In this document: in pieces, positions 15,824 through 53,011 of the stretch
Numbering within the stretch: position 1 is the first letter of the stretch
Layout: each line of letters starts with the position of its first letter
Source: an uncultured Planctomycetia bacterium
GTDB taxonomy: Bacteria; Omnitrophota; Gorgyraeia; Duberdicusellales; 4484-171
NCBI GenBank assembly: GCA_964489445.1
Contig: CAZAYU010000004.1
Coordinates: 141,198-194,208 of the forward strand
Reading direction: 5' to 3'
Length of the DNA stretch: 53,011 nt
Position numbers and translations under genes: made by a program
The notes under the pieces: generated by a model
What the model saw: the letters and a program-made list of their open reading frames with translations, nothing else
What the model was told of the DNA's origin: nothing
Database searches by the model: none

Positions 15824-15839
15824 ATCTATCCCTATCCTT

Positions 15840-23003: not shown

Positions 23004-23276
23004 TTACACCCTATTATCGCAAGCCATCCTGTATGCTGATAACACCGAATCATTTAACAATTGACGAGCTTGTGCAGTTAATGGAAATGCGCTGCTATAC
23101 CATTTGTTATCTTTACCTGCTTCACACGGAACACCAACAAATAATCCATTTTTTCCTTCAACAATTCGAAATCCCTTTACTAAAAACTGCCCACTAATCG
23201 AAATATCACATATTGCTTTAGTCGATCCTTCCGTATTAAATTTATGAATCCGCGTAACCTTAAACTCTAAATCCAT
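23004..23276 (-). CDS. spoVG: SpoVG family nucleic-acid-binding protein
   Basis: V.RI.......KA....I...F.V.G.RIV.GK.GLFV..P....D.KW....P; GGGGGTG RBS. Confidence 0.85.
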   Translation of the reverse strand: MDLEFKVTRIHKFNTEGSTKAICDISISGQFLVKGFRIVEGKNGLFVGVPCEAGKDNKWYSSAFPLTAQARQLLNDSVLSAYRMACDNRV

Positions 23277-24291: not shown

Positions 24292-24293
24292 AT

Positions 24294-24325
24294 TAATAGA
24301 CGAAATTTATTCCGTTTTTCTTTCA
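24294..24325 (-). promoter_or_regulatory. candidate ECF-sigma promoter, copy 1 (between sigma and anti-sigma genes)
   Basis: TGAAAGAA-N15-CGTCTATTA; the TGA is also the stop codon of the sigma gene. Confidence 0.6.
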
Positions 24326-24892: not shown

Positions 24893-24941
24893 TAATAGCT
24901 AACTAATGAACTAAATGTGGGCAAATTAAAAAACTATACCT

Positions 24942-24980
24942 TTATAAAACCACTTTCCACCTTGAAGGTAGAAAGTGGTT
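24942..24980 (-). terminator. probable intrinsic terminator after the TPR gene
   Basis: AACCACTTTCTACCT-TCA-AGGTGGAAAGTGGTT: 15-bp stem that is fully paired on the minus strand (one G-U pair), followed by TTAT. Confidence 0.6.
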
Positions 24981-25020
24981 AACAACTCAACACAAGAAAA
25001 TAGAAACGTCCCTTTTAATT

Positions 25021-26049: not shown

Positions 26050-26128
26050 CTCCTTAGATTACTCGTTCTGATTTAAATTTTATCAATCCCTTTAAAATAC
26101 AAAAAATAAGACTCAAGTTCATTTTATC

Positions 26129-31238: not shown

Positions 31239-34200
31239 TTACGGTGTACTATATCTAAACGTAAACAGTGTTACCGGATTAGAAATATTTCCGGCTTTAT
31301 CTTCAGTTTTTACACGTAAGTAGTACGTTCCGGTACCTACTGCATTCGGATTACACCCAGCATAAGCTGTCGAGGTAACCGGCAAACCAGAAGCATTATT
31401 CCCAAAATACCAGTAATATTGCTTAATTCCGGAACGGTTGTCAGTTGCGCCATTCCAAGTAAATTCCGGATCAGAAACTGTACTTTGCAAAGTATTATTC
31501 GTTGCGCCATGAGTTTCAGTTGCTGGTAAATTAGGATTAGAGGGGACGCTTCCATCATATTTAAAAATAAATACAGTTTGCGAAGTAGATATATTTCCGG
31601 AATTATCTTCGGTTTTTACACGTAAATAGTATACTCCACTAGAAACTGCATCAGGATTATGTCCGGCAAATGTAGTCCAGTTAGATGGATTATCAGATGC
31701 GCTCGTGCCAAAATACCAGTAATAGCCCTTAACTCCAGAAAGATTATCTTGAGCGCCACTCCAAGTAAATTCCGGATCAGATACAGAATTTTGCCAAACA
31801 TCATTAGAAACCGCATGAGTTTCAGTTGCCGGTGAACTAGGATTATCCGGAAAAAGCGTATCAGACGCTGATTGCGCTGTGTCAATTTCTTTATTGCTAT
31901 TAAAAAATTGTTTACGCTTTAATAAGTGGGTTGTAGAAACATAACAATACTGTAGGTGGATTGTCCCTTCGGAAGAAGCAACACCATCGCTATTATACGC
32001 TTTAAGATGTAGCCAATTTTCTCTGCCGATAAAGTTATATGTTAGAGACAGACTTCCACTGGTCCACTGCGTATCTGTGCCAATAACTTCAGAGTCAGAA
32101 GTTGTATTCCATTTGTAACGATAATAATCAATCGCATTGTTATCTAATCTAACGCTATAAAAGATAAACTCGTCATGGCTACCACCAGATAAATACTGAT
32201 ACCAGGTTTGTGGTAGGTGCCCACGTTGATCATACCTAACATCAGAATTATCAGGTAAAAGATGTTTATAAGAAGGATCAGGATAAGTCCATGCACTTTC
32301 ATTGCCAGCACGGTCTCTTACTTTCCAGCGAAAAGCAAAATCATCATTGTCTAAACCAGAAACAACCCAAGAACCATCACACCAACCGCTATCACCATCA
32401 AAATCACTTTCAGATTCAAAATAATCTAAGTCATTGTCATGCTGGAATTTACACCAAGCAGTAGCCGGAATACCGCTTCTTGCGTCTGTAGCGCCAGAAA
32501 CGCTAACGCTGATACTATTTTGGGTAATCGTACCATAAGATAACGTTCCGGGAATAGGAGTGATTATATCAATATAGTAAGGGCCACTATCAGAAGAAGT
32601 CGTATCCCAGTTACCAGCATTATCTACTGAGCGAATATGGAAATAATTTCCAGTTCCATCCGGAAAATTAATTTGCTGGTAAGTATTTGTTTCTTGCAAA
32701 TCTTTAGTTATCCCGGTCCAATCAGCAGAAGAAGTATTTATTGTATAGTCATATCCGTCTAAGCCACTATTAGATACACCATTATCAGTATCTAAGGCAG
32801 CAATCCAATTAAATCTTAAAGTCGGATTATTAGAAATTCCCGACTGCCAAATTCCAGTCGCCCGCCCATCGCTGGGAACAAGATTGGTTACTTCTTGGGG
32901 AGGCGTAATGTCGATATAGTAAGGACCTTGACTAAAATCTTCTGCTATGTTCCCGGCAGAATCTACAGTTTTAATATGAATAAAATTAGTGTTTCCTTCC
33001 GGAAACACAACTGAACTGTTGGAAGTTTCTCCTTGATAAATAACAGTATCTGTAGTAGTCAATAAAGTATCATTTGATTCTAAGTTTTTATAAATACTGT
33101 ATCCAGCAATATTAGAGGCGACTGGAGAAGATTCTATTTTAACCAGCGTAGCATCATCCCACCAGACTTGTCCACCATTGTTTGGACTATCAACATAATA
33201 AGAAAGAGCAATTGCCCCACTGGCACCAGTATTAAATATAGTGCGGATTTTAGTCCAATCAGAAGTACCAGAAGCAGTAGTTTGTGGTGCTTCAATTGCT
33301 GATAGTCCTGCACCAGACACATTACATTTTGCTTGGCCAGCTGTTAAGCTTGTTTTTACAATAGCAGAAAACAAATAAGTAGAATTTGCTTCTAACTCTG
33401 TTCCCACGGTTAAATCTACGCCCCAGTAAACATCAGAAGCTGGACAATCAAACCTTAAACTTTTATTTCCTTTGTAATAGATTGATTCGTCGAAAGTAAG
33501 AAAATTAGCAACAACACTTCCATCAGAGTCAGTAGTTCCGGTATAAGGAGCATTTAAGGTTATGGAATTAGAGGTTATTGCACTAATTTTATAAATAGAA
33601 GATTCAGCTGGAGAGGTATTAACAATTTTAATATAGCTATCTACTGAAAAATAAGCAGTTAAATCAGAAGTAGTAGCAACTGACTCATTGTCATAAGTTA
33701 CTGATAACGTTCCAGGCGTAGCGTTTAACACACTACTTTGAATGTTAGAATCTTCTTTTAAGTAACCGGGATAATCTAGATTATCCATTGTTGGATCGTA
33801 AAGTAAATTACTAGTGTTTCCTTCATAATCTATTGCCTGATCATAATAATAATAAGTAGTACCGTTAGAAACTGGAGCCGACCAGGAGAAAGCAACAGTA
33901 TTGTCGTTAGATATGCCAAACTGCCAAGTATTAGGATTGTGATTGCCGTCTTCGATTGTGCCCAACGCTGAAGGTTGCGCTTTATCAATCGGCCCGACAT
34001 CATAAATTTCAACTTCATTTAATCCAGTAGAGCCAGCACTCTGCCAATTAGAGGTATTAGCAATCCTTATATAACGGCAGACAACCGGATCACCGCTATT
34101 TAAAATCGGAAACACCTGAGGCGCAGGATTACCGCTTCCATCTTCAGAAGCTAAAGTTCCACTATAACGTTGAGTATAACTGGAATTATCCGGACTTGTA

Positions 34201-37200
34201 GAAATAGTAAATGCTTTGAACCCTCCGGAAGATTGATTACGATTATAAATTACTGCCCGATCAATAACTCTGCTGACACCTAGATCAATAGTAATGTATC
34301 CGGTAGCTGAATCTGCATCTACCCAAGCAGTAGAAAGGTTTCCATCAATAAGGTAATTGGGATTCTGTGACCCGGTGGTTTGATTTTCTATTGTACCGCC
34401 ATTAGAGGAAACAGCATGGTTAGCAGCTGTATCGTTCGATAAATTGTCATAGGCAACTACCCCAGCTCCAGAATCAGTAGTTCCGGTATAAGGAGAATCT
34501 AAAGTGATAGAATTGGAAGTTATTGCTTGTACCTGATAAATAGAAGACTCAAACGGGTCAACACTGGAATTATAAATTGATACATAATCGCCAGTAGAAA
34601 AATAAGAAGTTAGGTTTACAGATGTAGTAACAGATGTGCTATTGTTAGTAACTGATAATGTTCCGGCAGTAGAAGTATCAGCAATCAACGGACGGATAGA
34701 GACATTATCAAATTCAACAGTAGAATTATAAGAACCTAAAGCCATTCGATAAGTTGCACCGGAAAAATTAGCATCACTGCGTTCCATTAAAAAAACATCA
34801 TTTATATAAAATTTATACATACTGCCGTTACAAATAATTTTGGCATGATAAGTCTGCCCTTGAGTCAAATATATCCGATTGTTACCACTTTGATAAGTAT
34901 AGCTAGTGCTTCCATTTACCTTCCGTTCACACCGCCAATAGTCATAGTATCCGCCGTAGGAATAATATAAATAAAACCGGATATAATTATTGCTATCCAC
35001 ATATTTTGCTGTCAGGCTAATATAGCTCCCCGAAGTCCGTTTAAAATCAAATTCAATAATCCGGTTTCCAGAAAAACTTTGATCGGTGTAAGCTTGGTTG
35101 TTGTTAGTATTCACACAAGTTAATTTGCCTCCGGATATAGTAGCTCCAGCGGGTAAAATCCAAGCATTATTGGATGAGGAAAAATTATCATAAAAACCAT
35201 CTACCGGATAATAATTGCCGGTTACATTCGGTGCACGTAAGAAATTATATCCGGATAAACCAGATAAAGAGGTGTCTGTGGGGTCAGAGACACTCCAGGA
35301 TAAATCCATACTACCCATTCCGGCTGGCAAAGGAGCAAGAGCCAAATCAGAAGTACCGGGTATTTGACGATCAGCAATATATGAAGCATACTTATACCCA
35401 CTATAAAGATTACTATCTGTTTCAACATCACAAGAATTCCGTCCTCTTGTGTTATAAAAATTATTTCCATACCAACTTTCTAAACCATTATCGAAATAAA
35501 AAACATCTCTTCTTTTAACAGTTACACTTCCATCAGAGTCAGTAGTTCCTTCATATAGCGAATCTAGAGTAACATAACTACTACCTACTGTTTTAACTGT
35601 ATAAACCCCCTCTTCCACCGGAGAAGTATTAACAATCTTAATTGAATCACCAGCGGTTAAATAACTTCTCAAGTCAGAAGTACTTACCGTAATACTTGCG
35701 TTAGTAACGTTAGCGGTTCCGGAAGTATCGGTATCTTCAGTATTTCCGGTCGGAGGAACTCCATATTGCCCAGATGCTGCCCATCCAGTATCCACCGCTT
35801 TCCACCCACTAAGGTATTTATAAAGCAAATAATCATCCGAGGTGTTTGCCCAACGAATTTCTACTCCTCCGGAATTAGAATCAAGCGGTGCCCTATAAGT
35901 TGTAGTAACACTAATAACTCTTGGTCTTGTCGCCCGTGTACACAGAGAAACGTCGGAACTGTAAGTTGTATTTATCTCATCACCATTACGAGCCATAGCC
36001 TTAAACCGATAGCGCTGATTCGCAGCTAAGTTAACTACATTTTCATAATTTGCACCGTTAAAGGCAGAATAAGTACCCCATGCCTCAGAAGCAACAATTT
36101 CTCCATTGGCCGGATTAACCCACTTAACCGGTAAGAAATCCGCGGACTCATCAGTCCCGGCAGTTTCCGGATCATCAAAGTCCACCATTATCGCATACTC
36201 AGTGTCATTGGAAGTAGTGCAAGTGGCCACGCCTACCGGATTACCATTTTGATTAACCCTTACTCTTAAATGATACGTAGAAGTGTAACCAGAAGGCAAT
36301 ATAGCTGAAGGTATAGAAGGTGTATTAGCTAAAGTATAGATCTCCTTTTCTGTAGGATTAGGATTAGTTTCCACGCCATCACCATTACGTAATATAACCT
36401 TATAACCATATTGAGCATTAACTAACCCGTAGTCCCGATAAGTGTAATCACCATTCTGCCAGCCGGAATCATCACCATTACATCCGCTTCCGGTAAAATT
36501 ATCAAAATAAGCACCGGTATCATCAGCAGTAGGATTCGGATGTGTAGCAACAACTTCAAGATCTACGTAATTAGTGCCAACCGAAAGGGTTACTTCACCA
36601 TCCGTAAGACTCATCACGCGAGTATAAATCGCTAATTCCGAACCATAGGCAGTCTGGACGTTTTCCGCATTTCGAGCTTTCACTTTAAATCTGTATTGTG
36701 TGTTTTCTGCTAATCCGGTTATAAGCTCACCACTTGCTCCGCCAAAAGCAGAATAAACATCCCAAGCGTCATTTTCAACCGTAATAATACCATTAGTATC
36801 TGGATCAACAAAATGTGTACCATAAACATACCCTCCTCCCTGAACAGTAATCGCATACTGAGTATCAGCACAGCTAGTCCATTCAGCAGCTATTGGATTT
36901 AGGTTTTTATCAATGGTCACGGTCAGTCGATCAATTACATCCATTGCCGGAAGAGTTCCAACGGGAGTTCCGGGAACTCTAGCTAAAGTATACCGACTTG
37001 ATGAAGTAGAATAAATAGTTTTATTACCCGCATTATCGCGTAATTTAACTTGATAAGTATACTGAGTGTTTGGATAAAGGCCGCTATCTACATGAGCGGT
37101 AGAAATTACCCAAATAGAATCATTTGCCCCGGGGCCACCACCAGTTTCATCAAACCAATAAGGACCATTTCCTTCATCTTCAGCCGGAGAAGAAATATTC

Positions 37201-40200
37201 GCGCCGTTATAAAGGTCAGACGTAGCATCACTTCCGGTAGCAGCATTAACCGTAAGTTGACTATAGCTGTTAGCAACTATTGAGTTGATCGCCTGTCCAA
37301 CAGGAGCAATAGTGTCAATCTGGTAAGGTCCTTTAGAAATATCATTTGCCCGATTTCCAGCACCATCAATAGCTTTTATGTGGATGTAATTATTCGGACT
37401 TTCATCAAAAACAATTGTACTTATTGCAATTGCGCTTTGATAAATAATAGTATTAGACGTAGTCAATAAAGTATCGCTATTGCTTAAATTCTTATAAATA
37501 TTATAACCGGAAATAGGAGTGGTAACTACATCGGAAGAAATCTTTACTATCCGGGTATTATCCCACCATACTTGGCCGCCGCTATTAGGATCATCAGCAA
37601 AATAAGATATAGTGACTGTACCACTGGCCGAAGTAGTAAAAATAGTCCGAATTTCGGCCCAGTCAGAAATTCCGCTGGCAGTAGAATAATTAACAATTGA
37701 ACCACTTCCAGTAACATTACATTTTGCTAATCCAGAAGTAAGGTTAGTTTTTACAAACGCAGAAAATAAATAAGTAGAATTGGCATCAATGTCAGCACCG
37801 ATTGTTAATACAGCGCCTCTATAAGCATCAGAAGCAGAACAAGAAAATTTTAGACTAGCATTTCCTTTATACTTATTCGATTCATCAAAGCTAAAAGTGC
37901 CATTTTGAGTGATAGAGTCTTCTTTAATGTAACCTGGATATTCAGTATTCTCCATCGAAGGATCAAAAACTAAATTACTTTGGTTTCCTTCATTATCCAT
38001 AGCGATTTCCTGATAATAATAATTGCTGCCATTAGAAACCGGAGCAATCCAGGAAAAAGCAACAGTATTATCATTAGAGACTCCATATTTCCATTCGGTT
38101 AAGGTATGAGTATCATCACAGCTAATCTCACTTAATACCGCAGGTGCAGCCTTATCAACCGGCCCAACATCATAAATTTCTACTTCTACCAACCCGATGG
38201 AACCGGCATTTTCCCAATTGGAAGTATTAGCGATTCTTACATAACGACAGGCAACCGGGTTACCACTATTTAAAATCGGAAACGCCTGAGGCGCGGGATT
38301 ACCACTTCCATCCTCAGAAGCTAAAGTCCCACTATAACGTTGAGTATAATTGGAATTATCCGGACTTGTAGAAATAGTAAACGCCTTAAACCCTCCGGAA
38401 TATTGATTAAGATTATATATTACCGCCCGATCAACAGTTCTTATCGCACCTAAGTCAATAGTAACACTGCCTGTGGCTGCACCATAAGTCCAAGCAGTAG
38501 ATAAATTGTTATCAATAAGATTGGCAGGGTTAGTGCCGCCAGAGGCGGAAACGGAAACTTCCGAGACGACATCATTGTATAAATTGTCATAGGCAACTAC
38601 TCCGGCTCCCGAATCAGTAGTTCCGGTATAAGGAGAATCTAAAGTGATAGAATTGGAAGTTATTGCTTGTACCTGATAAATAGAAGACTCAAACGGGTCA
38701 ACACTGGAATTATAAATTGATACATAATCGCCAGTAGAAAAATAAGAAGTTAGGTTTACAGATGTAGTAACAGATGTGCTATTGTTAGTGACCGATAATG
38801 TTCCAGAAGTAATAGTATCAGCAATCAACGGACGGATAGAGACATTATCAAATTCAACAACAGAACCCTCTGTAGATAATCCGAATCGATAATTGCTATC
38901 GGTAAAATCAGAATTATCGTAGCTCATCACAAATTGATCATTAATGTATAGCCGGTAGTGATCATCCTTACAAATTATCATTGCATGGTATACAATATCA
39001 TTATCAAGATCATAGATTATTTTTCCTTGTTCTTTTTTAAGACTTCCGTTTAACGTTTCCTGCCAGAACCAATATGTACTTCCCCTCATTTTCTCATACC
39101 CAAACCAGACAAAATTATTTGAATCTTTGTATCTGGCAACCAAATAAATATTGCGTCCGGAGGTACGCTCAAAATCAATTTCAACCACTCGGTTTTTGGA
39201 ATAACCTGGATCAGTATATGTTGAGTTAGTAGTGTCATCACAAGACATAATTCCGGAAGATATAGAAGCTCCAGAAGTTAATATCCAATTTCCGGGAGTT
39301 GATGAAAAACTATCCCAAAGTCCGTCAGCAGGAAAATAATCACCAGTTAATGCCGAGGCGCGATTAAAAGTGTACCCGGACAAAGAAGTATCTGTAGGAT
39401 CAGACACACTCCAGGATAAATCAATACTCCCCATATCCGAAGAATTAGACACTATTTCTGTTTCCGGAATAGTAGGCTTGACCCGGTCAACAGTAACTAC
39501 ACCGTCATCGATATTCGAATAAGCAGTTTCATCATCTTCTAAATTCCGGCCTTTGACTCGATACCAGCGATGCTCACCCTGACCAAGCCCAGAGTGAATA
39601 TATAATACATGTAAATTCTCTTCAAAAGCTACATCACTATCCGTAGCACCACAATATCCATTATATGCAGGATTAGGAAAAGCAGGCAATATCGTTAAAA
39701 CATCGCTGACATCATTAATATCCATGATCTTATAAATACCTGCATGATCAGTGCTATCAATTTTTATATATTCACTAACTTCCAAAACATCATTTAAATC
39801 TCCGGAAAAACCAACAACCGACACTGTATCGCTACCCTGAGTAACATTAAGGGTAGCCTCAACAACGGTGCCTTCCACATATTTAATATCCGGAACCCAG
39901 CTACCTTCGGGAGCAGTATCTGTGGTTAAAATTTCCCATCCAGTAGTTCCGTTGGGAGAGGCTTCGATATCGTAAGAATAAGAAGTATAAGTCCAGGTAA
40001 TTTTTAATCCGCCGCCGCCGGAATTAAGTGTACCGGCAGAATCTGAGCTTTCTACAGAAGTAATCACCGGAATTTTAGGAAGAGACCACTTGCATAAAGT
40101 TACATAATCACCACTGTCATCTACATACCCTCCATCACCATCAATATCCGGATCGCCATCACCATTACGATACCAAACACGGTAACAATAATAGTAATCA

Positions 40201-46200: not shown

Positions 46201-49200
46201 ATAGTTCCAGCACCGGAGACATCACACTTTGCCTGACCAGCATTTAAGGCAACAGTTTTAACAAAAGCGGAAAATAGATAAATAGAATTTGCATCAATAT
46301 GCGTTCCGATAGTAAAATCGGAAGACCAGACAGAATTACTTCCGGAATAAATAACTTTTAAACTATAATTGCCTTTGTGTTTTATACCTGTATCAAACGA
46401 CTCAGTTGCCGCACCATGTGTATTAGAGCCAACTCTTAAATATCCCTGGTTGACCGGATTTTCCATTACCGGATCATAAATTAAATTGCTTTGGTTTCCT
46501 TCATTATCAAAAGCTTGTTCGTAATAATAATAAGTTGTCCCATTAGAATCAGCGGGGGCAGACCAGGAAAAAGCCACTGCGTTATCATTAGAAACTCCAA
46601 ATTGCCATTGGCTTAAGCCATGAGTATCAGTACAATTAATTGCGCTCAACGCATCTGGAGCAGCTTTGTCAATCGGACTAACATCATAAATTTCTACTTC
46701 CATCAATCCGGTATAACCACCATCACCCCAATTAGAAGTATTAGCGATTCTTACATAACGGCAGATAACCGGATTACCGCTATTTAAAATCGGAAATACC
46801 TGAGGCGCCGGATTTCCAACGCCATCTTCAGCCACTAACACTTCGGTATAACGAGTAACGAAACCGGAAGTAGGTTGATTACTAGTAGAAATGGTGAAAT
46901 CTTTAAATCCTCTTGTGTAGTATGAAGTTTCATTATAATTATAAATCACTGCCCGGTCTATTTTTCGTAGTTTTCCTAAATCAAGAGTAATGTATCCGGT
47001 AGTTGTACCATTAGTTAACCACTGATTACTGACGCTAGTTCCGGTTTTAACAGAATCAATAGCTTTAGTTGCCTCTCTTCCTGAATATTGAGAACTGTAG
47101 TTAGCAATTGCTCCGCCTAAAGCTGAAGCCGCACGGTTAATCGCTAAATCGGTATCAACAAGATGACCATTATCCGGAGTTCCGGCAACTAGCGGACGAG
47201 CCTTTACATTGTCAAATGTTGCTCCGGAAGAATAACTTAATAGACCAATTCCACCGGAAGCATGGCCGGTAAAATCATACTCACCGACAAAAAAATCATC
47301 TACATATAACTTAACATTCTGCCCATCTACCTTTAGCATAATACGATAAGTTACTCCGGCAGTAATTCCCGGATAGCGTTCACTGGCAACATCAACATAT
47401 GAGCCGGTAGCTGCGGTAGTTACACTATCTCTCAACCGCCAGTAATTCCAGCTGGGATTAGCAACTAAAGACATTGTATCTGTTGAACCAGCAGTATTGC
47501 TATTTCTGAATACTACTGCCAGATACCCGGCAGAAGATAATTTAGCGTCAAATTCAAAGATAAAATCTGTATAGGAATGGGTTAAATCTTGCGCCCACAT
47601 CCAGCTAGCTGTAGTCGCCGAATTAACTAGTTGTTCAGAGGTAACCGCCCATGAGCCATTGGTCATAGTAAACCCTTCAGAATTACCGTCAGAAAAATTA
47701 TCCGATAATCCTTCAACCGAATCATAAGTTCCGGTTGAAGAAGGAGCGCGATTAAACGTGTACCCGGCGACATCCGAACCGGTTCCGTCTACCGCATCCC
47801 AGGTAAAAGAGACATTTCCCATCTCCGTAGTTGAGGAAAAAAGAGTTACTTCGGGAATTCCCGGTTGAGTCCGGTCAGCAGTAACTATTCCATCGGGGGG
47901 AGGAATAGAGGAATAATCAGTCCAAACATTATCTAGATTCCTGCCTTTTACCCGATAATAGAGTAAATCACCACAACTTAATCCAGAATGAATATACACT
48001 ATCTCTCTTCGTTTTACACTGGCACTTCCATCAGAATCATTGGTTTCGGTATACGGAACATCTAAGGTAATACTAGAAGTAGTCATGCTCTTAACCGTAT
48101 AGATTGATGACTCTGAAGGATCAGTATTAACAATCTTTATCGTATCTCCAGCGCTTATGTAACTGGTTAAATCAGTAGTAGTAATCACCTGATTACCATT
48201 AGTAACATTAGCACTTCCGGTAGTATCTGTATCTTCTATTTCTAAAATGCTCGATGGAGGTGTTTCATTGTCAATGCCCGGAGCTATTGACCAAGTACCC
48301 GCTCCGTCCGGATCTTCCGAACCATCACTATCGGTAAGGGAAGATTTGAGAGTGTAGCTCTTAGAAGTATGATGCCATCTAATCTTTAGACCACCGGCTC
48401 CAGAATTAAGTGGACCGGAATAAGCAGAAGTTTCAATAGAAATAATTTGCGGTATCGCCGGGCGAGTATACATACTTTCTACCGCACTAAAAGCAGTCTC
48501 TACATTATCTCCGTTACGTGCCTTAACTTTAAACCGGTAAATTTTATCAGCCACAAGACCAGTTACTTCGCAATTACCCCATTCACTATACGTTTTCCAT
48601 TCTGCTGTTCCTCCGCCAATAATTGCATTTTCTGTCGATGCCCAATCTAAATATTTGGTAGTATTGAAACTAGTTGCATCGAAATCATCATCTACAACAA
48701 TCGCGTACTGAGTATTGCCAGCATTTGTCCAAGTTTCAACTCCAGTTGCTGGATTACCATTGCGATTAATAGATACTTGTAAACGATCAATAGAAGTTCC
48801 AGCAATTAAAGAAACTGTGGGAGCATCAGGAACATTACAAAGGGTATATTTAGAAATTGTTGCTGAATACGCTGACTCATTATGCCAGGTACCCTTACTT
48901 TCATTATAATTATCGTGGGCTTTAGATTGATACCCATATTGAGTATTTAATAAAAGTTCAGAATCTGAATAAGAATAAGTAGAAGATGTGGTTTGAATCC
49001 AACCAGAATCAGTACCATTATTTACATTAGTAGTTTCATTGACATAAACCCCAACATCACCTACGCGATACCATTCAATACTGTCATTGTAAGTTTCATT
49101 TAAATATTGTGCGGCCCCAGCTTGAGCTCCAGTTCCAGCACCTTGATCGGAAGGAAGATTACCACTAATAGTAATCTGATTCGTTGAGTTAACTACTACC

Positions 49201-52200
49201 ATAGGAGCCGAAGGAACATTCGGTTGGACATTATCCACAAATACATCACAATACATTGATTCACCCCAACGAATTGAGTAATTTCCGGCTTTATCTAGTG
49301 AATCAAAATGCCAGCGGTTATGACCACTTATGCCGGTAAACGTAGACGACCATGTGCCGTCATCATCATTTAACACGTTTTTATCATCCCAGGTGTAATC
49401 ATAATTATTACCCCAAGCCCCCCAAACTACACCGATAGTACTTAACCCGGAAGGAACATCAGCGGCAGCTCCGGTAATTGTAATCGAAGTAGAATTAGTA
49501 AAGAAATCCTGACCGTCAGTTGTCCACGATTGGCCAATAACTGTATTGGGGTTTAATGTTGGAAGAGTGGTATCAATCCAAATCGGGCCAATAGTTTGAA
49601 CTGCAGAAATATTTCCAGCACCATCTTCAGCTTTAACATAAATATTATGGATAGAGTCGGCTGCTCCTCCGGTTAATACAGCAGTAACCTCGCTTAATGT
49701 TGTTCGCGAAACCCAGGTACCACCACTTTCCGGAGTTGAATCATCAACTGCCCACCAATATCCGGAAACAGGTGTAGCTACAATTGATGATTCTATTGAT
49801 GTATCTATCTCGTTACCTTCGTCGTCTAATGTAGTCAAAGAATAAAAGTAATCATCCGGAGAACCGGAATCAGAGTTAGCTTCCAACCATTCAAAATCAA
49901 CATTAGGAATGTTAGAAATATTTGATTGCCAGACTCCCATATTGTGTGTGGATGAACCATCAGTATTATCTTTTACCGGAGTAGTAGGAATTAGCGTATC
50001 CCCACCGGAGGAAGGAATTACCTTAATATTATCTACATACCAAGTAGTATCTACAGTTCCATAGCCATAACTAGCAAACCAGATCTTCTTAATACCCGTA
50101 GATCCGGCATCAGCAAACGCTACAGTATTGCAATGTTCACCATTAATATAGTACCTTACAACATTATTTGTATTATCAATATACACCTTAAAATGATAAG
50201 TACTTCCTACTGACAATCCAGACTCTACCGACTGCCATCCGGCAGAAATATATGTTTGCCAATGTTCATTACTTATGGCCGAGTGAATTATTTCGGTGGT
50301 CCAACTGGTATTAGAAGTTGAATCTCCTACCTCAAACAAAAAGTCCCAGCTGTTAGAATCAGTAACCGTTAAATCAAATTCAATAGTTGCATTAGCGGTA
50401 ATTTCCGAAGGCAATTGGTACATTGCGTAATCATAAGATTCACTGGGTGCAGAAGCCGGATGCACCATTTTTAAGCGTCCATTATCCACAGTATAAGCCG
50501 CACCATCAGTTATATCTTTAGTCCAGCCGATTGAAGTAATATCACTTCCGGTTAATATCCCAGAAAAATCTTGAGCATAACCGCCAAAAGTATCCACTAT
50601 CTCGTTTGTGCTAATTAATGGCGTTACTGTAATATCTTTAAAGTATTTGCTGTTTACATTTCCATAACCGGCTAAATTAAAGTGTGTACCGGAAGCATTG
50701 GGGGTGCGCGCTGAACCTTTTAATATCTGTACTCCATCAATTGCAACCGTTATTGCATTATTAGAATCAATAAGGATATCAAACTGATACTCAGTATTAT
50801 ATGCAAAAGTATAACTTGAACTTTGAAACGGTGAATTAGAACCGTCAATTAATCCGACAACATTTCCATAACCCTGGTTTTTAAATACTACACCGTAACC
50901 GTTCCAAGGAGCATATGTTCCGCTAGAAGGAGCGCGCACACTGACAATTGCCTCTTCATTAGCCGCTGCTTCAAAGCCAAAAGTTCCGGAAATCTTTAAA
51001 TTATTTTGTTGAGCAATCGGTTGTTGAACTCCGGCATCATAATAAAAATATAAATTATTACTTAATATTTTATTATCACTGGCACTGACTTCTGTGCCTA
51101 CACTTTGTCCATTCCGTGATTCAATCCATACACCTCCGGTAGATGCCAAACCAACTGTATCACTATTTGCTCGCGTAAAACTATCATAAATCGCCGCATC
51201 GCCTACCGGTTCATAAGTTCCGCCTAAAGTGCTTGAACGGTAATAAGTATACTTAGGAGCACCACTAGCATAAAGATCGTGCACCTCTTGAGCACTCAGT
51301 GCAGAACTATAAATCCGGACTTCATCGATTTTACCATTGGCAGTATACCCGGCATAACCACCACCTATTGCTGAATATTGTGCATTCGCACCTATTCCTC
51401 CACTTTCCGTATTTTTCAACTCACCATCGATAAAAATACTTCTGGAATCGGTATCCATTACCCAGATTACATGATGCCATTGATTTAAAGATATCCCGGT
51501 TGTAGTTTGAATAACTGTATTATCAAACCGAAAATATACTTTTTCATTAGACCCCATATGACCTACTTCAAGATTATTAGCTCCATCAATAAGGCTAAAC
51601 CAACGCGGATTGCTAGCGTCATCACGCGGATTAACCCAAAATGCTATTGTAAAATCTCCAGACAAACTAGCACTACTATCCGGTATACTCACATAATCAT
51701 CCGTTCCATCAAAATCTAAACCTGTATTGAACTTACCAACTATCCAGTCTGTATCCAAATCCATATTGATAAGTGTTCCTTTCTTCTCATTACCACTAGA
51801 ATCATAAGCAACGGCTCCGAAACCTTCATCAAAATCCCAGTAAGCAGCTAAATTAGCATCACCGGGTTTTGCCGAAAGTTCAACGTAATCTCTACCGGTT
51901 GAATAATTTGCCTCGATCTCAGAATCAGTAAGTGCACGATTATAAATCCGAGTTTCATCAACAATGCCATTTAAATAACCAATCCTCACAGACTTAGCAA
52001 TATACAGTGGTTCCGAAGAACTAAAAGAAACGTTCCTGCTAAACGAATTACTACCTACAGCATCTTTAAACCCCTGCATTGTTCCATTTTGTCTTCTGAC
52101 TACCACATGGTGCCATTTTCCATCTTCGATATTCGCCATAACTGAACCAAACTCACCAGCATTACCCGCCGTGTATGTACCTCCAGCTAAGTCCATATAA

Positions 52201-53011
52201 AATCCACCATAAGCTGGATAAATTCCCATTCCCCAACTATCCCTTGAACTATTCATCTTGGTAATGATTTCTCCCGTTGTATCAGTTGTTTTTATCCAAA
52301 ATTCAATTGTAAAATCATTTGTCCCAAAATTCCCGGCATCAATATTTCCGCAATCCACATAATCATCACTCCCGTCAAAACTCAAAGCTCCACCGGAAAC
52401 TCCACTGGCATTATAAGTAGCACCAGTATTCGTCCCGTCATTATCTTGGGCACTATAATCTTTTCCTATATTGGTGTTGTCATTAAAGCTCCAATAACCC
52501 AGACAATTTGATTCGGCAGTACCTAAACCAGAAACTGCCGGTTCAGTGCGGTCAGGAGTAGGAACTGAAGCGCTAGGTGATGAATTGGTTTCTACTCCAT
52601 CTGAGTTCCTTGCTTTTACCTGAAAAGTATAGTAAGTATTGTCCTCAAGATTAATAATATCTTTTCCGGAAGCGCTACCCCAATTAGCATAGGTCTGCCA
52701 AGTTTCCGATACTTCATCAAGTATACCGTCTGAGCCTAACCATTTCGTTACACCGGTATTTTCATTAACCCCATTAATTGCGTAAGTAGTATAAGCAGGA
52801 TTTCCAGTAATATTAATTATTAAATTAATTTTACCTAATTCCGAATTAAGTGCTTGATTCGTATACGCAGTAATTGTAGGTGCGCTCAAGTATGTCGCCC
52901 GTGTATATACCGGATCCGATTGAGTACCATAAGCAGTCTGGACATCATTTCCGTTACGAGCTTTTACTTTTAAAGTGTATACCGTATTACTGTCTAAGCC
53001 GGTAATTGTTT
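31239..53011 (-). CDS. giant multidomain extracellular protein (at least 7256 aa, 5'-truncated by the window): LamG x4, FN3/Ig-like repeats, DUF1080-like, F5/8C-like, CBM-like, DUF2341
   Basis: Uninterrupted frame from the window edge to TAA at 31239. Upstream of the TTG at 52889 it reads TITGLDSNTVYTLKVKARNGNDVQTAYG, another FN3-type repeat. LamG pattern GYWSF...G.DG...GA.SFDG..DYV...F(T/S)I..W...WHH...DE.R.Y..AL occurs four times; DUF2341 pattern YQV.L...MQ.DF.DLRF.D.DG..ISYWVE occurs once. Confidence 0.95.
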   Translation of the reverse strand, partial: TITGLDSNTVYTLKVKARNGNDVQTAYGTQSDPVYTRATYLSAPTITAYTNQALNSELGKINLIINITGNPAYTTYAINGVNENTGVTKWLGSDGILDEVSETWQTYANWGSASGKDIINLEDNTYYTFQVKARNSDGVETNSSPSASVPTPDRTEPAVSGLGTAESNCLGYWSFNDNTNIGKDYSAQDNDGTNTGATYNASGVSGGALSFDGSDDYVDCGNIDAGNFGTNDFTIEFWIKTTDTTGEIITKMNSSRDSWGMGIYPAYGGFYMDLAGGTYTAGNAGEFGSVMANIEDGKWHHVVVRRQNGTMQGFKDAVGSNSFSRNVSFSSSEPLYIAKSVRIGYLNGIVDETRIYNRALTDSEIEANYSTGRDYVELSAKPGDANLAAYWDFDEGFGAVAYDSSGNEKKGTLINMDLDTDWIVGKFNTGLDFDGTDDYVSIPDSSASLSGDFTIAFWVNPRDDASNPRWFSLIDGANNLEVGHMGSNEKVYFRFDNTVIQTTTGISLNQWHHVIWVMDTDSRSIFIDGELKNTESGGIGANAQYSAIGGGYAGYTANGKIDEVRIYSSALSAQEVHDLYASGAPKYTYYRSSTLGGTYEPVGDAAIYDSFTRANSDTVGLASTGGVWIESRNGQSVGTEVSASDNKILSNNLYFYYDAGVQQPIAQQNNLKISGTFGFEAAANEEAIVSVRAPSSGTYAPWNGYGVVFKNQGYGNVVGLIDGSNSPFQSSSYTFAYNTEYQFDILIDSNNAITVAIDGVQILKGSARTPNASGTHFNLAGYGNVNSKYFKDITVTPLISTNEIVDTFGGYAQDFSGILTGSDITSIGWTKDITDGAAYTVDNGRLKMVHPASAPSESYDYAMYQLPSEITANATIEFDLTVTDSNSWDFLFEVGDSTSNTSWTTEIIHSAISNEHWQTYISAGWQSVESGLSVGSTYHFKVYIDNTNNVVRYYINGEHCNTVAFADAGSTGIKKIWFASYGYGTVDTTWYVDNIKVIPSSGGDTLIPTTPVKDNTDGSSTHNMGVWQSNISNIPNVDFEWLEANSDSGSPDDYFYSLTTLDDEGNEIDTSIESSIVATPVSGYWWAVDDSTPESGGTWVSRTTLSEVTAVLTGGAADSIHNIYVKAEDGAGNISAVQTIGPIWIDTTLPTLNPNTVIGQSWTTDGQDFFTNSTSITITGAAADVPSGLSTIGVVWGAWGNNYDYTWDDKNVLNDDDGTWSSTFTGISGHNRWHFDSLDKAGNYSIRWGESMYCDVFVDNVQPNVPSAPMVVVNSTNQITISGNLPSDQGAGTGAQAGAAQYLNETYNDSIEWYRVGDVGVYVNETTNVNNGTDSGWIQTTSSTYSYSDSELLLNTQYGYQSKAHDNYNESKGTWHNESAYSATISKYTLCNVPDAPTVSLIAGTSIDRLQVSINRNGNPATGVETWTNAGNTQYAIVVDDDFDATSFNTTKYLDWASTENAIIGGGTAEWKTYSEWGNCEVTGLVADKIYRFKVKARNGDNVETAFSAVESMYTRPAIPQIISIETSAYSGPLNSGAGGLKIRWHHTSKSYTLKSSLTDSDGSEDPDGAGTWSIAPGIDNETPPSSILEIEDTDTTGSANVTNGNQVITTTDLTSYISAGDTIKIVNTDPSESSIYTVKSMTTSSITLDVPYTETNDSDGSASVKRREIVYIHSGLSCGDLLYYRVKGRNLDNVWTDYSSIPPPDGIVTADRTQPGIPEVTLFSSTTEMGNVSFTWDAVDGTGSDVAGYTFNRAPSSTGTYDSVEGLSDNFSDGNSEGFTMTNGSWAVTSEQLVNSATTASWMWAQDLTHSYTDFIFEFDAKLSSAGYLAVVFRNSNTAGSTDTMSLVANPSWNYWRLRDSVTTAATGSYVDVASERYPGITAGVTYRIMLKVDGQNVKLYVDDFFVGEYDFTGHASGGIGLLSYSSGATFDNVKARPLVAGTPDNGHLVDTDLAINRAASALGGAIANYSSQYSGREATKAIDSVKTGTSVSNQWLTNGTTTGYITLDLGKLRKIDRAVIYNYNETSYYTRGFKDFTISTSNQPTSGFVTRYTEVLVAEDGVGNPAPQVFPILNSGNPVICRYVRIANTSNWGDGGYTGLMEVEIYDVSPIDKAAPDALSAINCTDTHGLSQWQFGVSNDNAVAFSWSAPADSNGTTYYYYEQAFDNEGNQSNLIYDPVMENPVNQGYLRVGSNTHGAATESFDTGIKHKGNYSLKVIYSGSNSVWSSDFTIGTHIDANSIYLFSAFVKTVALNAGQAKCDVSGAGTIQGTAGTASGTSDWTQIRTIFQTSASGTVTLSYSGINSPSGTVYWDDAKLVKVSSEEVKAGISGYNIYKNLSSGDTVLSTTDNTIYQSATTISTVAFPDSQANYIHIKAIDSAGNWSGDIYKGPYWIDATDPSEVGSLADDSHNINGWQSGISNNPNVTFSWTAATDNLSGLDGYDWGVNTSSADWTGTTKDLQEAAVSVGITFPEGTGNYFHIRSVDNAGNWDDTSNDLGPYYIDYTIPNNPGTLAYGTITENSINVSVSGATDALSGLETTWCYFEYDADNTSFVSASANSGWCAGTWTPSGLLPNISYAFRWKVRDRAGNETGWSTPSPAYKYTYSNLPNPLTLIAYTNQPLNSELGKVNLKIDTNDNSSETTYAIYGTNENTDVSKWLGSDGLLDEVSEVWQIFVDWNGELGQDILNLDDNTTYTFKVKAKNGDAVVTSLSTGTLVTTLDRTAPVVSSLGTAESNCIGYWSFDNSSDVGRDSSAYGNDGTNNGATYNANGVSGGVLSFDGGSDYVEVGSVFNPSNDNWTISMWFNQYDATERGLFRSGLYSDVPKTTGIDFAVSSGGFKYRFSTPGNWADVASSTIGATVNNNVWYYVVVSRSGSNIDWYLNGVDIGDTNVGTATLGYGTYSIGDWDGGSAYNFNGLIDEVHVYDRALTASEIQANYSTGRDYVELSAKPGDANLAAYWSFDEGVAATAYDLTGNGNQGTLTGMDPATDWVDGKFGKALDFDGSGDYVTTSYGNGVNPNTQPCTYSLWVKSDNPSAGKMYLIQGNWSASTRAYFGHTGGYWSMGVQSSGWGETSGGAADSNWHHMAIVFDGSNAKFFIDGEYVYQKSYTSYNFNQELIIGSGRPTDSSYDWDGKIDEVRVYNTALSNRQVHNLYASGAPKYAYYRSTASSGTYELLDILDNRKQKKAVTINNAGNANNLNNYQVNLTVTYDSDMQADFDDLRFFDSDGTPISYWVESYTASTTASVWVKVPYIPASSSKIIWMYYGNSEAESLSNKSFVFPYDLKNPDFEETNTCLEPSATVQNFGWNHFDGTADNDCLEVNTLKAHSGTKSFGNSYSCNAVCDDEGSAATYPTTYMYQDVSVGSNDRYIVEATYWFQGIVFNGSGCPDLSETGGEDDSRLRLVYYNSGESQIGSYLGPSFSGLGYTSGWTWLKYTDVSETMPSNTAKVRVQVEGGDYNNSCGGFGGGGNAGGYYDDFSVIIRKYTSPEPSASFGAEQPAVWNGSDYADTFGGFYDNFSDGDTNGWVVNGSPTLANGTIALSGTDNEIHTTDKYGSGVLEIKINSASTSSAARFGMSDGQFTTYPSSSNSVFFHHWSGGLLYEDCYPGGSQNQSGTYAAGQDYYYKIIFVKNSHAELYQNGILKKKYDIAPNADMNIWLMSDGAIAQTFDWVKFTPIGADKGDNQAPSIPEKNPADGSNSHNTSVWQSGISNDNTVDFGYTQPLSNGDDYFYYASTVDGEGNKSSDNFILNPYFEKNTNDWSIGGAGAVSVEPNGPAGSYAKFDVNSGGEAVSFRSNVFSQEAGKTYHLSFWYKVSRADYNGSFRVGGYNGGTHWEFILSGEQSTDWKHVERTYTVQYGTPTYTNQFWVFGYQDVDVYIDDIEIYEVKSVNVTTPISGYWWAKTIATSTPPAFNTTNWTWVPRTTVNITTPALDGDCVNYIHYIHVKAEDGAGNLSGIQTTGPIWVDTVLPTVTLSSHTNGSSYYNNTGTITINGTSQDCPSNVDYTIWNIDRNNETGSYNSVTAPCTAWNGATEGDPNWSGTWQNLSGENWIYIADYDKAGNFSGWNQHVKLFTDTAAPNNPSFSVVDAVSGSQINLNWSLPADNGSGSGYPYTVDDVGVSVKRDSTIIYSTGHSENNYFWNDLSVSDTGRSENTQYTYTISAQDNTQEIRGNWHNTTSYVGSSSKYTLCNLPTGFDAVSDVVDEKPYIDLTVDTFPNHGSGSSGYKFDNVDPDNYNSEYWTSGWQSADNTWTDDNPEDLEEGLYPDYYYCYRVWYRNGDGDPDIDGDGGYVDDSGDYVTLCKWSLPKIPVITSVESSDSAGTLNSGGGGLKITWTYTSYSYDIEASPNGTTGWEILTTDTAPEGSWVPDIKYVEGTVVEATLNVTQGSDTVSVVGFSGDLNDVLEVSEYIKIDSTDHAGIYKIMDINDVSDVLTILPAFPNPAYNGYCGATDSDVAFEENLHVLYIHSGLGQGEHRWYRVKGRNLEDDETAYSNIDDGVVTVDRVKPTIPETEIVSNSSDMGSIDLSWSVSDPTDTSLSGYTFNRASALTGDYFPADGLWDSFSSTPGNWILTSGASISSGIMSCDDTTNSTYTDPGYSKNRVVEIDFERTSGRNIYLVARYKDSNNFVWFGYEKMRGSTYWFWQETLNGSLKKEQGKIIYDLDNDIVYHAMIICKDDHYRLYINDQFVMSYDNSDFTDSNYRFGLSTEGSVVEFDNVSIRPLIADTITSGTLSVTNNSTSVTTSVNLTSYFSTGDYVSIYNSSVDPFESSIYQVQAITSNSITLDSPYTGTTDSGAGVVAYDNLYNDVVSEVSVSASGGTNPANLIDNNLSTAWTYGAATGSVTIDLGAIRTVDRAVIYNLNQYSGGFKAFTISTSPDNSNYTQRYSGTLASEDGSGNPAPQAFPILNSGNPVACRYVRIANTSNWENAGSIGLVEVEIYDVGPVDKAAPAVLSEISCDDTHTLTEWKYGVSNDNTVAFSWIAPVSNGSNYYYQEIAMDNEGNQSNLVFDPSMENTEYPGYIKEDSITQNGTFSFDESNKYKGNASLKFSCSASDAYRGAVLTIGADIDANSTYLFSAFVKTNLTSGLAKCNVTGSGSIVNYSTASGISDWAEIRTIFTTSASGTVTISYFADDPNSGGQVWWDNTRIVKISSDVVTTPISGYNIYKNLSNSDTLLTTSNTIIYQSAIAISTIVFDESPNNYIHIKAIDGAGNRANDISKGPYQIDTIAPVGQAINSIVANSYSQLTVNAATGSDATSDLYNGANISSPAEDEGNGPYWFDETGGGPGANDSIWVISTAHVDSGLYPNTQYTYQVKLRDNAGNKTIYSTSSSRYTLARVPGTPVGTLPAMDVIDRLTVTIDKNLNPIAAEWTSCADTQYAITVQGGGYVYGTHFVDPDTNGIITVENDAWDVYSAFGGASGELITGLAENTQYRFKVKARNAENVQTAYGSELAIYTRVMSLTDGEVTLSVGTNYVDLEVVATHPNPTADDTGAYFDNFTGSGCNGDDSGWQNGDYTYRDYGLVNAQYGYKVILRNGDGVETNPNPTEKEIYTLANTPSIPSAILPSGYTSTYHLRVRVNQNGNPVGVATCTTSNDTEYAIMVDFDDPETAGTDESADFLPVKWVNPANGEIVASEAWGTYSAFNGANYENVVNLAANQRYRFKAMARNGDEINTTYSSDVSLCTRATRPRVISVTTTYRAPLDSNSGGVEIRWANTSDDYLLYKYLSGWKAVDTGWAASGQYGVPPTGNTEDTDTSGTANVTNASITVSTSDLRSYLTAGDSIKIVNTSPVEEGVYTVKTVGSSYVTLDSLYEGTTDSDGSVTVKRRDVFYFDNGLESWYGNNFYNTRGRNSCDVETDSNLYSGYKYASYIADRQIPGTSDLALAPLPAGMGSMDLSWSVSDPTDTSLSGLSGYNFLRAPNVTGNYYPVDGFYDNFSSSNNAWILPAGATISGGKLTCVNTNNNQAYTDQSFSGNRIIEFDFKRTSGSYISLTAKYVDSNNYIRFYLYYSYGGYYDYWRCERKVNGSTSYTYQSGNNRIYLTQGQTYHAKIICNGSMYKFYINDVFLMERSDANFSGATYRMALGSYNSTVEFDNVSIRPLIADTSTAGTLSVTNNSTSVTTSVNLTSYFSTGDYVSIYNSSVDPFESSIYQVQAITSNSITLDSPYTGTTDSGAGVVAYDNLSNDTAANHAVSSNGGTIENQTTGSQNPNYLIDGNLSTAWVDADSATGYITIDLGVSRVIDRAVIYNRNQSSGGFKAFTISTSPDNSSYTQRYSGTLASEDGSGNPAPQVFPILNSGDPVVCRYIRIANTSNWQSAGSTGLNEVEIYDVGPIDKAQPSALGTIEDGNHNPNTWQFGISNDNTVAFSWSAPVSNGTTYYYYDQAIDYEGNTSNLLYDPTMDNLDYPGYLKEDSNIQSSVLNATPGTLSVTYDNESVATTSDLTAYFSVDSYIKIVNTSPAESSIYKISAITSNSITLNAPYTGTTDSDGSVVANFLTFDESIYYKGNKSLRFDCPASDVYWGVDLTVGTELEANSTYLFSAIVKTSLTAGQAKCNVSGAGLSAIEAPQTTASGTSDWTKIRTIFNTGASGAIALSYYVDSPNNGGQVWWDDATLVKIESSPVASNIAGYSIYKNLESNDTLLTTTDTVIYQGETSNSSVVFPEGNTNFIHIKTVDSAGNIAEDFSQGPYYIDITPPQEVTNLVPSDGRATGIWQSGISNNPTLRFNWIAALDTDNGVSNSGLDGYDYTINTSSADWTGITKDLQETNTYQQINFPDGTGNYFHIRSVDNAGNWDTTSSDSGPYYIDIITPIPGTLSYGTITQNSISVSVSGATDARSGIPATAWCKFQHDNDLDYFESESDFDGDSGWCDGSWVVSGLDNDDFAFRWKVRDRAGNESAWTYPDPSYKHLLPDNSDVRYDQRGHLPQTWYQYLSGGSHDEFIFYSVRLDNNAIDYYRYKWNTTSDSEVIGTDTQWTSGSLSLTYNFIGRENWLHLKAYNSDGVASSEGTIHLQYCYVSTTHLLKRKQFFNSNKEIDTAQSASDTLFPDNPSSPATETHAVSNDVWQNSVSDPEFTWSGAQDNLSGVKGYYWYFGTSASDNPSNWTTFAGHNPDAVSSGVYYLRVKTEDNSGNISTSQTVFIFKYDGSVPSNPNLPATETHGATNNTLQSTVSDPEFTWNGATDNRSGIKQYYWYFGNNASGLPVTSTAYAGCNPNAVGTGTYYLRVKTEDKAGNISNPVTLFTFRYSTP
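31245..31860 (-). repeat. two tandem 102-aa C-terminal Ig-like repeats of the giant protein
   Basis: 306-nt offset; shared CATGAGTTTCAGTTGC (31508/31814) and CCAAGTAAATTCCGGATCAGA (31455/31761) on the + strand. Confidence 0.9.
34441..34719. repeat. intragenic direct repeat, copy B (partner at 38581-38859)
   Basis: 279 nt with 9 mismatches by manual comparison; 34471-34649 is identical to 38611-38789; offset 4140 nt. Confidence 0.95.
38581..38859. repeat. intragenic direct repeat, copy A (partner at 34441-34719)
   Basis: Same comparison as for copy B. Confidence 0.95.
43520..45180 (-). repeat. second copy of the FN3-LamG-LamG block (first copy about 51260-52890)
   Basis: AYTNQ.LNSELGK.NL, KWLGSDG.LDEVSE.WQ, LGTAESNC.GYWSF and YSTGRDYVELSAKPGDANLAAYW recur with an offset of about 7710 nt. 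Confidence 0.9.

Follow-up and report, generated by a model that had tools for sequence, protein, structure and literature searches.

To explain how the Omnitrophota and other ultra-small, host-dependent bacteria hold on to other cells, the leading candidates are giant proteins that combine lectin-type domains with fibronectin type III (FN3) arrays, and to our knowledge none of them has been characterized biochemically. Within the Omnitrophia, giant open reading frames (ORFs) of >20 kb occur in 20 of 23 genomes; they encode TM (transmembrane) helices and large extracellular domains, including PF00754 and PF13385, and a role in adhesion has been proposed (Seymour et al. 2023, PMC10066038). A catalogue now lists thousands of bacterial proteins of at least 10 kaa (thousand amino acids), 94% of which have a signal peptide or a TM helix, and the repeat-scaffold long proteins of Omnitrophota carry up to 36 copies of PF13385, with 80% of clusters being singletons (Nielsen & Lui 2026, bioRxiv 10.64898/2026.06.07.730766). 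For the dockerin-type giants both prey adhesion and wall degradation have been proposed (West-Roberts et al. 2023, bioRxiv 10.1101/2023.11.21.568195). The giant SPEARE surface proteins of the Nanohaloarchaeota reach 8.9-9.4 kaa, and LamG surface proteins are found in DPANN and in Patescibacteria (La Cono et al. 2023, PMC10266531). Here we describe a gene of this kind on contig CAZAYU010000004.1, where its 3' part fills positions 31239..53011 of the minus strand in the 53,011-nucleotide stretch that was analyzed, referred to below as the window. In the visible part some sixty beta-sandwich modules follow one another, with FN3/Ig-like domains separating the lectin-type ones, and we consider it probable that the product is a giant, non-catalytic, multivalent lectin-type surface fibre, which would be retained through an N-terminal signal or anchor and bind glycans with high avidity.

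Frame 2 of the minus strand is free of stop codons from 31242 to 53009, that is for 7,256 codons or at least 21,768 nt. Its stop codon is at 31239-31241, and on the other side the frame runs past the right edge of the window. Given the base composition, one stop is expected per ~15 codons, and the probability of a run of this length is ~1e-217. The visible part corresponds to 787 kDa with a pI of 4.3, and the 5' end lies outside the window. The TTG start of the mechanical ORF call (31239..52889, 7,216 aa) sits inside the frame. Residues 1-36 (TITGLDSNTVYTLKVKARNGNDVQTAYG...) form the last third of a ~115-residue FN3-like domain whose motif, ITGL..NT.Y.FKVKARN...V.TAY, has four further copies in the protein, and residues 1-200 are 56% identical to residues 2570-2770 (E 2e-64). 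Because this first visible FN3-like domain is cut at the window edge, the gene extends upstream past it. The exact 7,256-residue product is absent from the protein collection, in which the neighbouring genes are found on contigs of up to 194,208 bp, as would be expected if both the gene and its contig extend further. The visible protein is rich in Ser (11.2%), Thr (9.9%), Gly (9.3%), Asn (8.0%), Asp (7.8%), Tyr (6.3%) and Trp (2.5%). A hydropathy scan reveals no TM helix in the 7,256 visible residues, the highest Kyte-Doolittle mean over 19 residues being 1.2.

These results bear out the original prediction on each point concerning the extent of the gene. It had described a gene of more than 21.7 kb with at least 7256 codons, open at the edge, and the frame was recovered on recomputation; its view that the called start at 52889 is an internal TTG agrees with the ORF list. 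The 40 codons above that TTG, said to encode an FN3 repeat, are homologous to the C-terminal part of the recurrent FN3-like domain, and the truncated domain at the edge agrees with a true start outside the window. The predicted richness in Ser, Thr, Gly, Asn, Asp, Tyr and Trp was confirmed by recounting, and the lack of a TM helix in the visible part by the hydropathy scan. Within the same interval, a plus-strand ORF of 114 aa (35174-35518) was taken as a chance ORF, and no RNA elements were found in the giant gene.

The giant ORF is a real, native chromosomal gene of an uncultured low-GC bacterium. Its GC content at third codon positions (GC3) is 0.27, as compared to 0.27-0.29 in the neighbouring housekeeping genes, and dN/dS calculated in the giant-gene frame by the Nei-Gojobori method is 0.21-0.50 for seven pairs of internal paralogous segments, showing purifying selection on the gene. 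The comparison was made between internal paralogues; all six contigs retrieved from elsewhere are 100% identical to the window. These six short contigs (JGI 3300022826, four ENA assemblies and Logan SRR7529149) were assembled independently and match at 100% identity over the last 0.9-6.6 kb of the gene and the genes downstream.

An artificially long frame could be produced by a chimeric or mis-joined path through the repeats, and two features of the locus would be in keeping with such an artefact. The first is a pair of near-identical patches of 281 nt on the minus strand, at 34439..34719 and 38579..38859, which share 96.8% identity, include an exact repeat of 179 nt, and lie 4,140 nt apart, a multiple of 3. 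The second is that all six same-strain short-read contigs end inside the gene, between ~32.1 and 37.8 kb; L107, L106, L105, L104 and L001 end at ~32114, 33784, 34211, 35985 and 37834, respectively. Such breaks in the zone of diverged repeats are as expected for short reads, and they illustrate how genes of this type are fragmented in routine assemblies. The other internal DNA repeats are only 72-85% identical, so the 281-nt patch alone poses a real hazard to the assembly of the gene. Contigs L001 and L104 cross its first exact-repeat copy at 100% identity with unique flanks on both sides, and therefore the assembled order is the only linear arrangement. Moreover, a mis-join would seldom leave 21.8 kb open in a single frame, and the in-frame dN/dS below 0.5 and the uniform GC3 likewise speak against one. 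Taken with these observations, an assembly artefact is very improbable. The duplication that surrounds the patch is only ~78% identical, and the patch itself is probably the result of gene conversion between two paralogous domains of ~94 residues.

We searched the protein with Pfam as ten overlapping pieces of 800 aa, with matches listed to E<=1. The features given here are all on the minus strand and are described from the N-terminal side. The edge-cut third of the first FN3-like domain and a complete ~115-aa FN3-like domain (YTFQVKARN) occupy residues 1-170 (52500..53009), followed by a first Laminin_G_3 or ConA-like lectin domain at residues ~180-370 (51900..52472) and a second Laminin_G_3 domain at residues 434-577 (51279..51710), both recognized by Pfam. 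A jelly-roll beta-sandwich at residues ~809-999 (50013..50585), a module shared by ~30 relatives, is predicted by AlphaFold at a pLDDT of ~90 and has a weak match to a Sialidase-like CBM. The first copy of a fold resembling DUF1080, the 3-keto-disaccharide-hydrolase-like lectin fold, lies below the Pfam cut-off at residues 1776-1936 (47202..47684) and precedes the first F5/8 type C (discoidin, CBM32-like) domain at residues 1971-2104 (46698..47099; Pfam). The third and fourth Laminin_G_3 domains are at residues 2782-2937 (44199..44666; Pfam, and matching the LamG of PDB 4qvs) and 3005-3153 (43551..43997; Pfam), and DUF2341 is at residues 3220-3285 (43155..43352; Pfam). Beyond these are a second DUF1080-like copy below the cut-off at residues 3521-3656 (42042..42449), a weak MAM-like beta-sandwich at residues 3777-3889 (41343..41681; E 1e-4), and a third DUF1080-like copy at residues 4582-4726 (38832..39266), which scores 26.2 bits against a cut-off of 26.8. 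The second F5/8 type C domain follows at residues 4821-4941 (38187..38549; Pfam) and matches the CBM32 of AlyQ in PDB 7d29. The fourth DUF1080-like copy, again below the cut-off, is at residues 5949-6106 (34692..35165), and the third F5/8 type C domain at residues 6211-6325 (34035..34379; Pfam). Finally, a C-terminal pair of ~100-aa repeats at residues 7025-7253 (31251..31937) matches the OmpL47-type small beta domain (NF047446, 44.9 bits as compared to a cut-off of 40) and, more weakly, Big_13.

The three PF00754 domains are recognized at E values of 1e-9 to 5e-15, and the four PF13385 domains at a whole-protein E of 1e-84. A PDB sequence search of the giant protein returned only the LamG of 4qvs and the CBM32 of the alginate lyase AlyQ (7d29). 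The recognizable domains are all carbohydrate-binding-type beta-sandwiches on FN3/Ig spacers, which fits a multivalent extracellular lectin-type protein.

An AlphaFold model of residues 590-1789 is all-beta, with a mean pLDDT of 62; one jelly-roll reaches ~90 and several FN3-like domains 75-95. When this model was compared with known structures by Foldseek, the matches included FN3/Ig arrays (RPTP-sigma, titin, fibronectin and contactins), the CBM region of sialidase BT_1020, the lectin region of the adhesin SraP, laminin LG domains and a galectin fibre head, and no enzyme fold was among them. On these grounds we rejected a hidden enzyme in the modelled segment. The FN3 matches in Pfam are individually weak, and the FN3/Ig scaffold is backed by the Foldseek matches and by FN3-rich relatives.

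Those relatives were found in a HMMER search with residues 600-1799 against 1.84 billion representative proteins, which gave 272 matches at E<=1e-3, of which 21 are at E<=1e-30. The top match, 52% identical, is a fragment of 640 residues, and the others are proteins of 1.4-4.1 kaa at 35-44%; the giant protein's own sequence was not returned by this search. As a whole, the protein appears close to a singleton. The five closest relatives are FN3-rich and contain LamG_3 and DUF1080 domains, with no catalytic domain. At the N-terminus, most of the complete relatives have a membrane anchor or a signal peptide; at the C-terminus, some have a T9SS-like tail or a pair of TM helices with a basic tail. 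Because the relatives carry such signal peptides and anchors, the modules of the giant protein belong to an extracellular repertoire. One relative of the unannotated module (P0253) is labelled archaeal.

These observations suggest how the protein may work. An N-terminal signal or anchor beyond the window would export the protein and keep it at the cell, from whose surface it would reach out as a long flexible fibre. Through its many weak lectin-type sites it would bind with high avidity to the glycans of other cells or of particles, and the outcome would be the attachment of a small host- or prey-dependent cell. Glycan binding and a surface location are what membership of these domain families would predict, and we infer export, surface retention and the role in adhesion, along with glycan binding. 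In particular, localization rests on analogy because the visible part has no signal or anchor. The domain families, the lack of an enzyme and the signals of the relatives are consistent with the proposal in the original prediction of a very long, multivalent, glycan-binding surface protein. Its four LamG, one DUF2341 and three F5/8C domains are all above the Pfam cut-offs, and its FN3/Ig scaffold is backed as described above, although the Pfam FN3 matches are weak. No enzyme family appeared in the sequence searches or in the confident model, as it had anticipated, and the structure prediction that it had called for gives FN3 arrays and lectin jelly-rolls in residues 590-1789.

Several observations weigh against a surface-held lectin fibre. 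No signal peptide, anchor or secretion signal is present in the visible part, including its C-terminus, which reads ...FTFRYSTP and whose last 60 residues are a hydrophilic beta-domain sequence. The published Omnitrophota giants usually have ~1 TM helix per 1,000 residues, as compared to none in 7,256 here, and they usually lie near T2SS/pilus or GH (glycoside hydrolase) genes, as compared to housekeeping genes in the 31 kb downstream here. About two thirds of the visible protein is without confident structural annotation, and the model of the C-terminal 1,200 aa, built on a 19-row alignment, is predominantly beta with a mean pLDDT of only 47. The four PF06439 (DUF1080) matches are all slightly under the gathering score (E 1e-5 to 2e-3); of the approximately six DUF1080/lectin-like domains proposed earlier, these four can be pointed to, all sub-threshold, and the count is softer than it had seemed. 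The same applies to the approximately five CBM-like domains, for which there are three weak, sub-cut-off matches (Sialidase-like CBM, E 0.008; MAM, E 1e-4; CBM_4_9_1, E 0.012), hinting at further jelly-rolls, and the one jelly-roll that AlphaFold predicts with confidence. Finally, the phylum signal from CarB is weak. This protein is 76-82% identical to many sequences, of which the named ones are mostly Omnitrophota, with Aerophobetes and Chloroflexota equally close. A neighbour-joining tree, which carries no support values, groups the query with Omnitrophota sequences, and the host is likely, though not established, to belong to this phylum.

The visible region could also be the substrate-targeting part of a giant carbohydrate-active or cell-wall-degrading enzyme whose catalytic domains lie upstream. 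LamG_3, CBM32-like and DUF1080-like modules often accompany glycoside hydrolases and lyases, the best PDB match of a discoidin domain is to the CBM32 of an alginate lyase, the Foldseek matches include the sialidase BT_1020, and cell-wall degradation has been proposed in the literature for Omnitrophota giants. However, Pfam, NCBIfam and PDB sequence searches over the 7,256 visible residues identify no catalytic family, the five closest relatives are likewise non-catalytic, and the 31 kb downstream contain no GH genes. An enzyme of this kind is thus rather improbable, and we favour the non-catalytic fibre.

Self-comparison of the protein reveals a higher-order organization, in which blocks follow one another in the order A-X-B-D-C, A-Y-B-D-C, D-C, tail. 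The first mega-repeat comprises A (residues 1-600), X, B (923-1400), D (1318-1900) and C (1900-2605), and the second comprises A (2570-3177), Y, which contains the DUF2341, B (3611-4197), D (4267-4631) and C (4687-5245). A partial third consists of D (5285-6066) and C (6081-6916), and is followed by the tail (6917-7256). The protein thus consists of two complete mega-repeats of ~2,600 residues, an incomplete third one and a cap at the C-terminus, with block identities of 30-77%, and we propose that it grew by large segmental duplications. The window begins at a point that in repeat 2 is preceded by a C block, and therefore at least one further D-C unit is likely to lie upstream. Attempts to extend the gene in that direction returned little: word-indexed searches with residues 1-800 and 600-1799 gave only ~30%-identical LamG proteins or a single match, almost all matches being below ~1,400-1,630 aa and neither the giant protein nor any other giant being among them, such that very long proteins seem under-represented there. 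Scans of GTDB genomes and JGI metagenomes with the visible N-terminal part gave only LamG-level matches over short stretches at up to 62% identity, with no genome of the same species in the GTDB scan, and contig look-ups only short contigs that end inside the gene.

The presence of further sequence upstream raises the possibility that the visible part is the C-terminal ectodomain of a far larger, membrane-threaded coat protein, one arm of a prey-processing machine and not a simple adhesin. The model for such a protein is the 39,678-aa, 42-TM protein of Velamenicoccus archaeovorus, and the upstream part would then hold many TM helices and possibly SecA-like or enzymatic modules. In favour of this are the gene running on past the window edge, the finding that the neighbouring genes are in the protein collection, on a 194-kb contig, but the exact 7,256-aa product is not, and the mega-repeat order, which predicts at least one more D-C block upstream. 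In the literature, moreover, all full-length giants have TM helices and SecA DEAD domains, and the content of TM helices or signal peptides nears 100% at 30 kaa and above. On the other hand, no TM segment occurs in 7,256 consecutive residues, where the catalogued giants would have a helix about every 1,000, and the visible part has no dockerin, TSP3, SecA or enzyme domain. This arrangement is compatible with the lectin-type surface fibre, and we regard it as possible but doubtful.

We also considered whether the visible part carries the marks of known sorting or anchoring routes. As cargo of the type IX secretion system (T9SS) the protein was rejected, since TIGR04183 (Por_Secre_tail) scores 13.7 bits as compared to a cut-off of 23 (E 0.047) and the match is not at the extreme C-terminus. 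LPXTG or PEP-CTERM anchoring was rejected as well, since the visible sequence contains no LPXTG and does not end in a hydrophobic helix. A type V autotransporter was set aside because no such family is found with Pfam or NCBIfam, and the matches named OmpL47-type beta-barrel are two 68-residue domains without a translocator. The archaeovorin or dockerin type was rejected on the visible part, which has no dockerin (PF00404), TSP3 or SecA DEAD-like family at E<=1 and no TM segment.

Giant adhesins of the RTX type that use the type I secretion system (T1SS), such as LapA, SiiE and MpIBP, consist of near-identical tandem BIg repeats and end in a C-terminal RTX/T1SS signal. The present protein resembles them in being a very long, acidic string of Ig-like domains with ligand-binding modules and a presumed role in surface adhesion. 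Unlike them, it has diverged repeats (72-85% identity at the DNA level, except for the 281-nt patch), no GGxGxD anywhere in the visible part, and no C-terminal signal, and it was not assigned to this class. Titin, in which FN3 and Ig modules are arranged in higher-order repeats of several different domains, offers a parallel to the super-repeat build, and the Foldseek matches include the FN3 arrays of titin and thick-filament proteins. This is an analogy of architecture alone; homology does not extend past the FN3 fold, and unlike titin the protein is bacterial, contains lectin domains and is presumed to be extracellular.

Closer parallels are found among the giants of small or host-dependent microbes. 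Like the Omnitrophota giant ORFs (PMC10066038), the gene exceeds 20 kb, encodes PF00754 and PF13385 with few other annotated domains, and has a poorly conserved sequence; a role in cell-cell adhesion was proposed there for small host-dependent bacteria, and the named sequences nearest to the CarB found here are mostly from Omnitrophota. Multiple TM helices are predicted in those proteins, in contrast to the visible residues here. With the tandem-repeat scaffold class (Nielsen & Lui 2026) it shares a repeat-built protein, DNA repeats that have diverged while the architecture is kept, and near-singleton status. It differs from that class in having only four LamG copies and a repeat unit of ~2,600 aa with several domains instead of a single tandemly repeated Pfam domain, in a visible length under the 10-kaa threshold, and in a visible flank without T2SS/pilus or GH2 genes. 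The archaeovorin/dockerin giants are similar in being encoded by giant genes, in their extracellular beta-barrel and CBM-like repeats, and in the prey adhesion suggested for them; the dockerin, TSP3, SecA-DEAD and TM regions of those proteins have no counterpart in the visible part. The nanohaloarchaeal giants are of a similar size class, are acidic, and have Ig/FN3-like arrays and LamG lectin domains, which were proposed to fix the episymbiont to its host. Those proteins are archaeal, however, and contain a VirB4/TraG-like ATPase domain, and their Sec signal is visible; the part described here shows neither an ATPase domain nor a signal.

The gene therefore adds one member to a class on which several papers exist and opens no new question. 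Particular to it are a visible 7.3 kaa without a TM helix, the build from mega-repeats, the patch of probable gene conversion and the housekeeping flank. It could nevertheless serve as a tractable test case for the adhesion hypothesis, with an unusually clean architecture, LamG pairs and CBM32-like domains that could be expressed singly, repeats diverged enough to be assembled and cloned, and an adjacent gene for a fibre resembling the MAT (prey-recognition) fibres. The gene could also be used to study how mega-repeats evolve and how paralogous domains undergo gene conversion.

Every gene in the window lies on the minus strand, and the adjacent gene just mentioned (29416..31116) begins 122 nt downstream of the giant gene. 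It encodes a secreted, fibre-like protein of 566 aa with a signal peptide, no Pfam match and similarity to PHROG tail-fibre families (E 6e-14). A PDB sequence search relates it to the Bdellovibrio MAT fibres Bd1334 (8OML, E 2e-6) and Bd2133 (8OND, E 8e-5), single stretches being weak (i-E 0.03-0.1). The similarity passes through its three (V/I)GIGTxxPxxxL motifs, which correspond to the capping-loop consensus V-G-G/N-pi-x-x-P-x-x-x-L of these prey-recognition fibres. Members of the MAT superfamily are secreted trimeric beta-helices with a variable C-terminal tip, to which the 566-aa protein is likened by its sequence. No terminator is found between the giant gene and the 566-aa gene, and promoter-like matches there are no commoner than in shuffled sequence; the two are possibly co-transcribed. 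A lectin carpet and a specific fibre would make an attractive functional pair.

Whether the giant protein instead serves the cell's own surface, as an S-layer-like sheath or a biofilm or particle-attachment fibre, can be judged in part from these neighbours. The downstream set includes a Wzy_C-TPR protein and an ECF-type sigma factor, which are envelope functions; the best PDB match of a LamG domain (4qvs) comes from an S-layer domain-containing protein, and the giant protein is acidic and rich in Ser and Thr. However, Pfam and NCBIfam identify no SLH, S-layer or known anchoring domain in the visible part, the adjacent fibre resembles those with which Bdellovibrio recognizes prey, and giant lectin-rich proteins are, according to the literature, enriched in host-dependent lineages. 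A structural protein of the envelope or matrix is therefore unlikely, and attachment to other cells is the role that we prefer for the lectin-type fibre.

A broader proposal can also be made. The visible part would be the distal ectodomain of a protein of >10-30 kaa with at least three diverged mega-repeats, which together with the MAT-like fibre would form a two-part recognition apparatus of an episymbiont or predator, maybe an Aerophobota-like or deep Omnitrophota lineage. If so, the lectin carpet would provide avidity and the fibre tip specificity, and this episymbiont or predator may lie outside the lineages in which such genes have been catalogued. We put this forward as speculation, with little expectation that it holds in full.

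The remaining downstream flank is ordinary chromosome, largely housekeeping, and the 31 kb below the giant gene contain no secretion-system, pilus or glycoside-hydrolase genes. After the fibre gene comes an envelope-type set on the minus strand (23728-29173), with a 1,014-aa protein in which an O-antigen-ligase-like Wzy_C domain of 12 TM helices is fused to a long TPR region, a secreted TPR protein, the ECF-type sigma factor, and a Cys-rich, one-TM protein that resembles an anti-sigma partner. Between dprA and the anti-sigma-like gene is a 90-aa ORF (23004-23276, minus strand) that by eye resembles SpoVG. Further downstream are DprA, a ComM-like Mg-chelatase ATPase, YraN and CofD. Finally, the region at 284-16367 on the minus strand holds a nearly complete pyrimidine biosynthesis cluster (pyrF, pyrD, pyrK, carB, pyrC, pyrB and a PRTase), interleaved with fpg, a pabB/aminotransferase-IV fusion, a dCTP deaminase, and two proteins of 413 and 428 aa without a family match. 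Within the same region, a tRNA-Arg(CCG) is located at 10954-11026.

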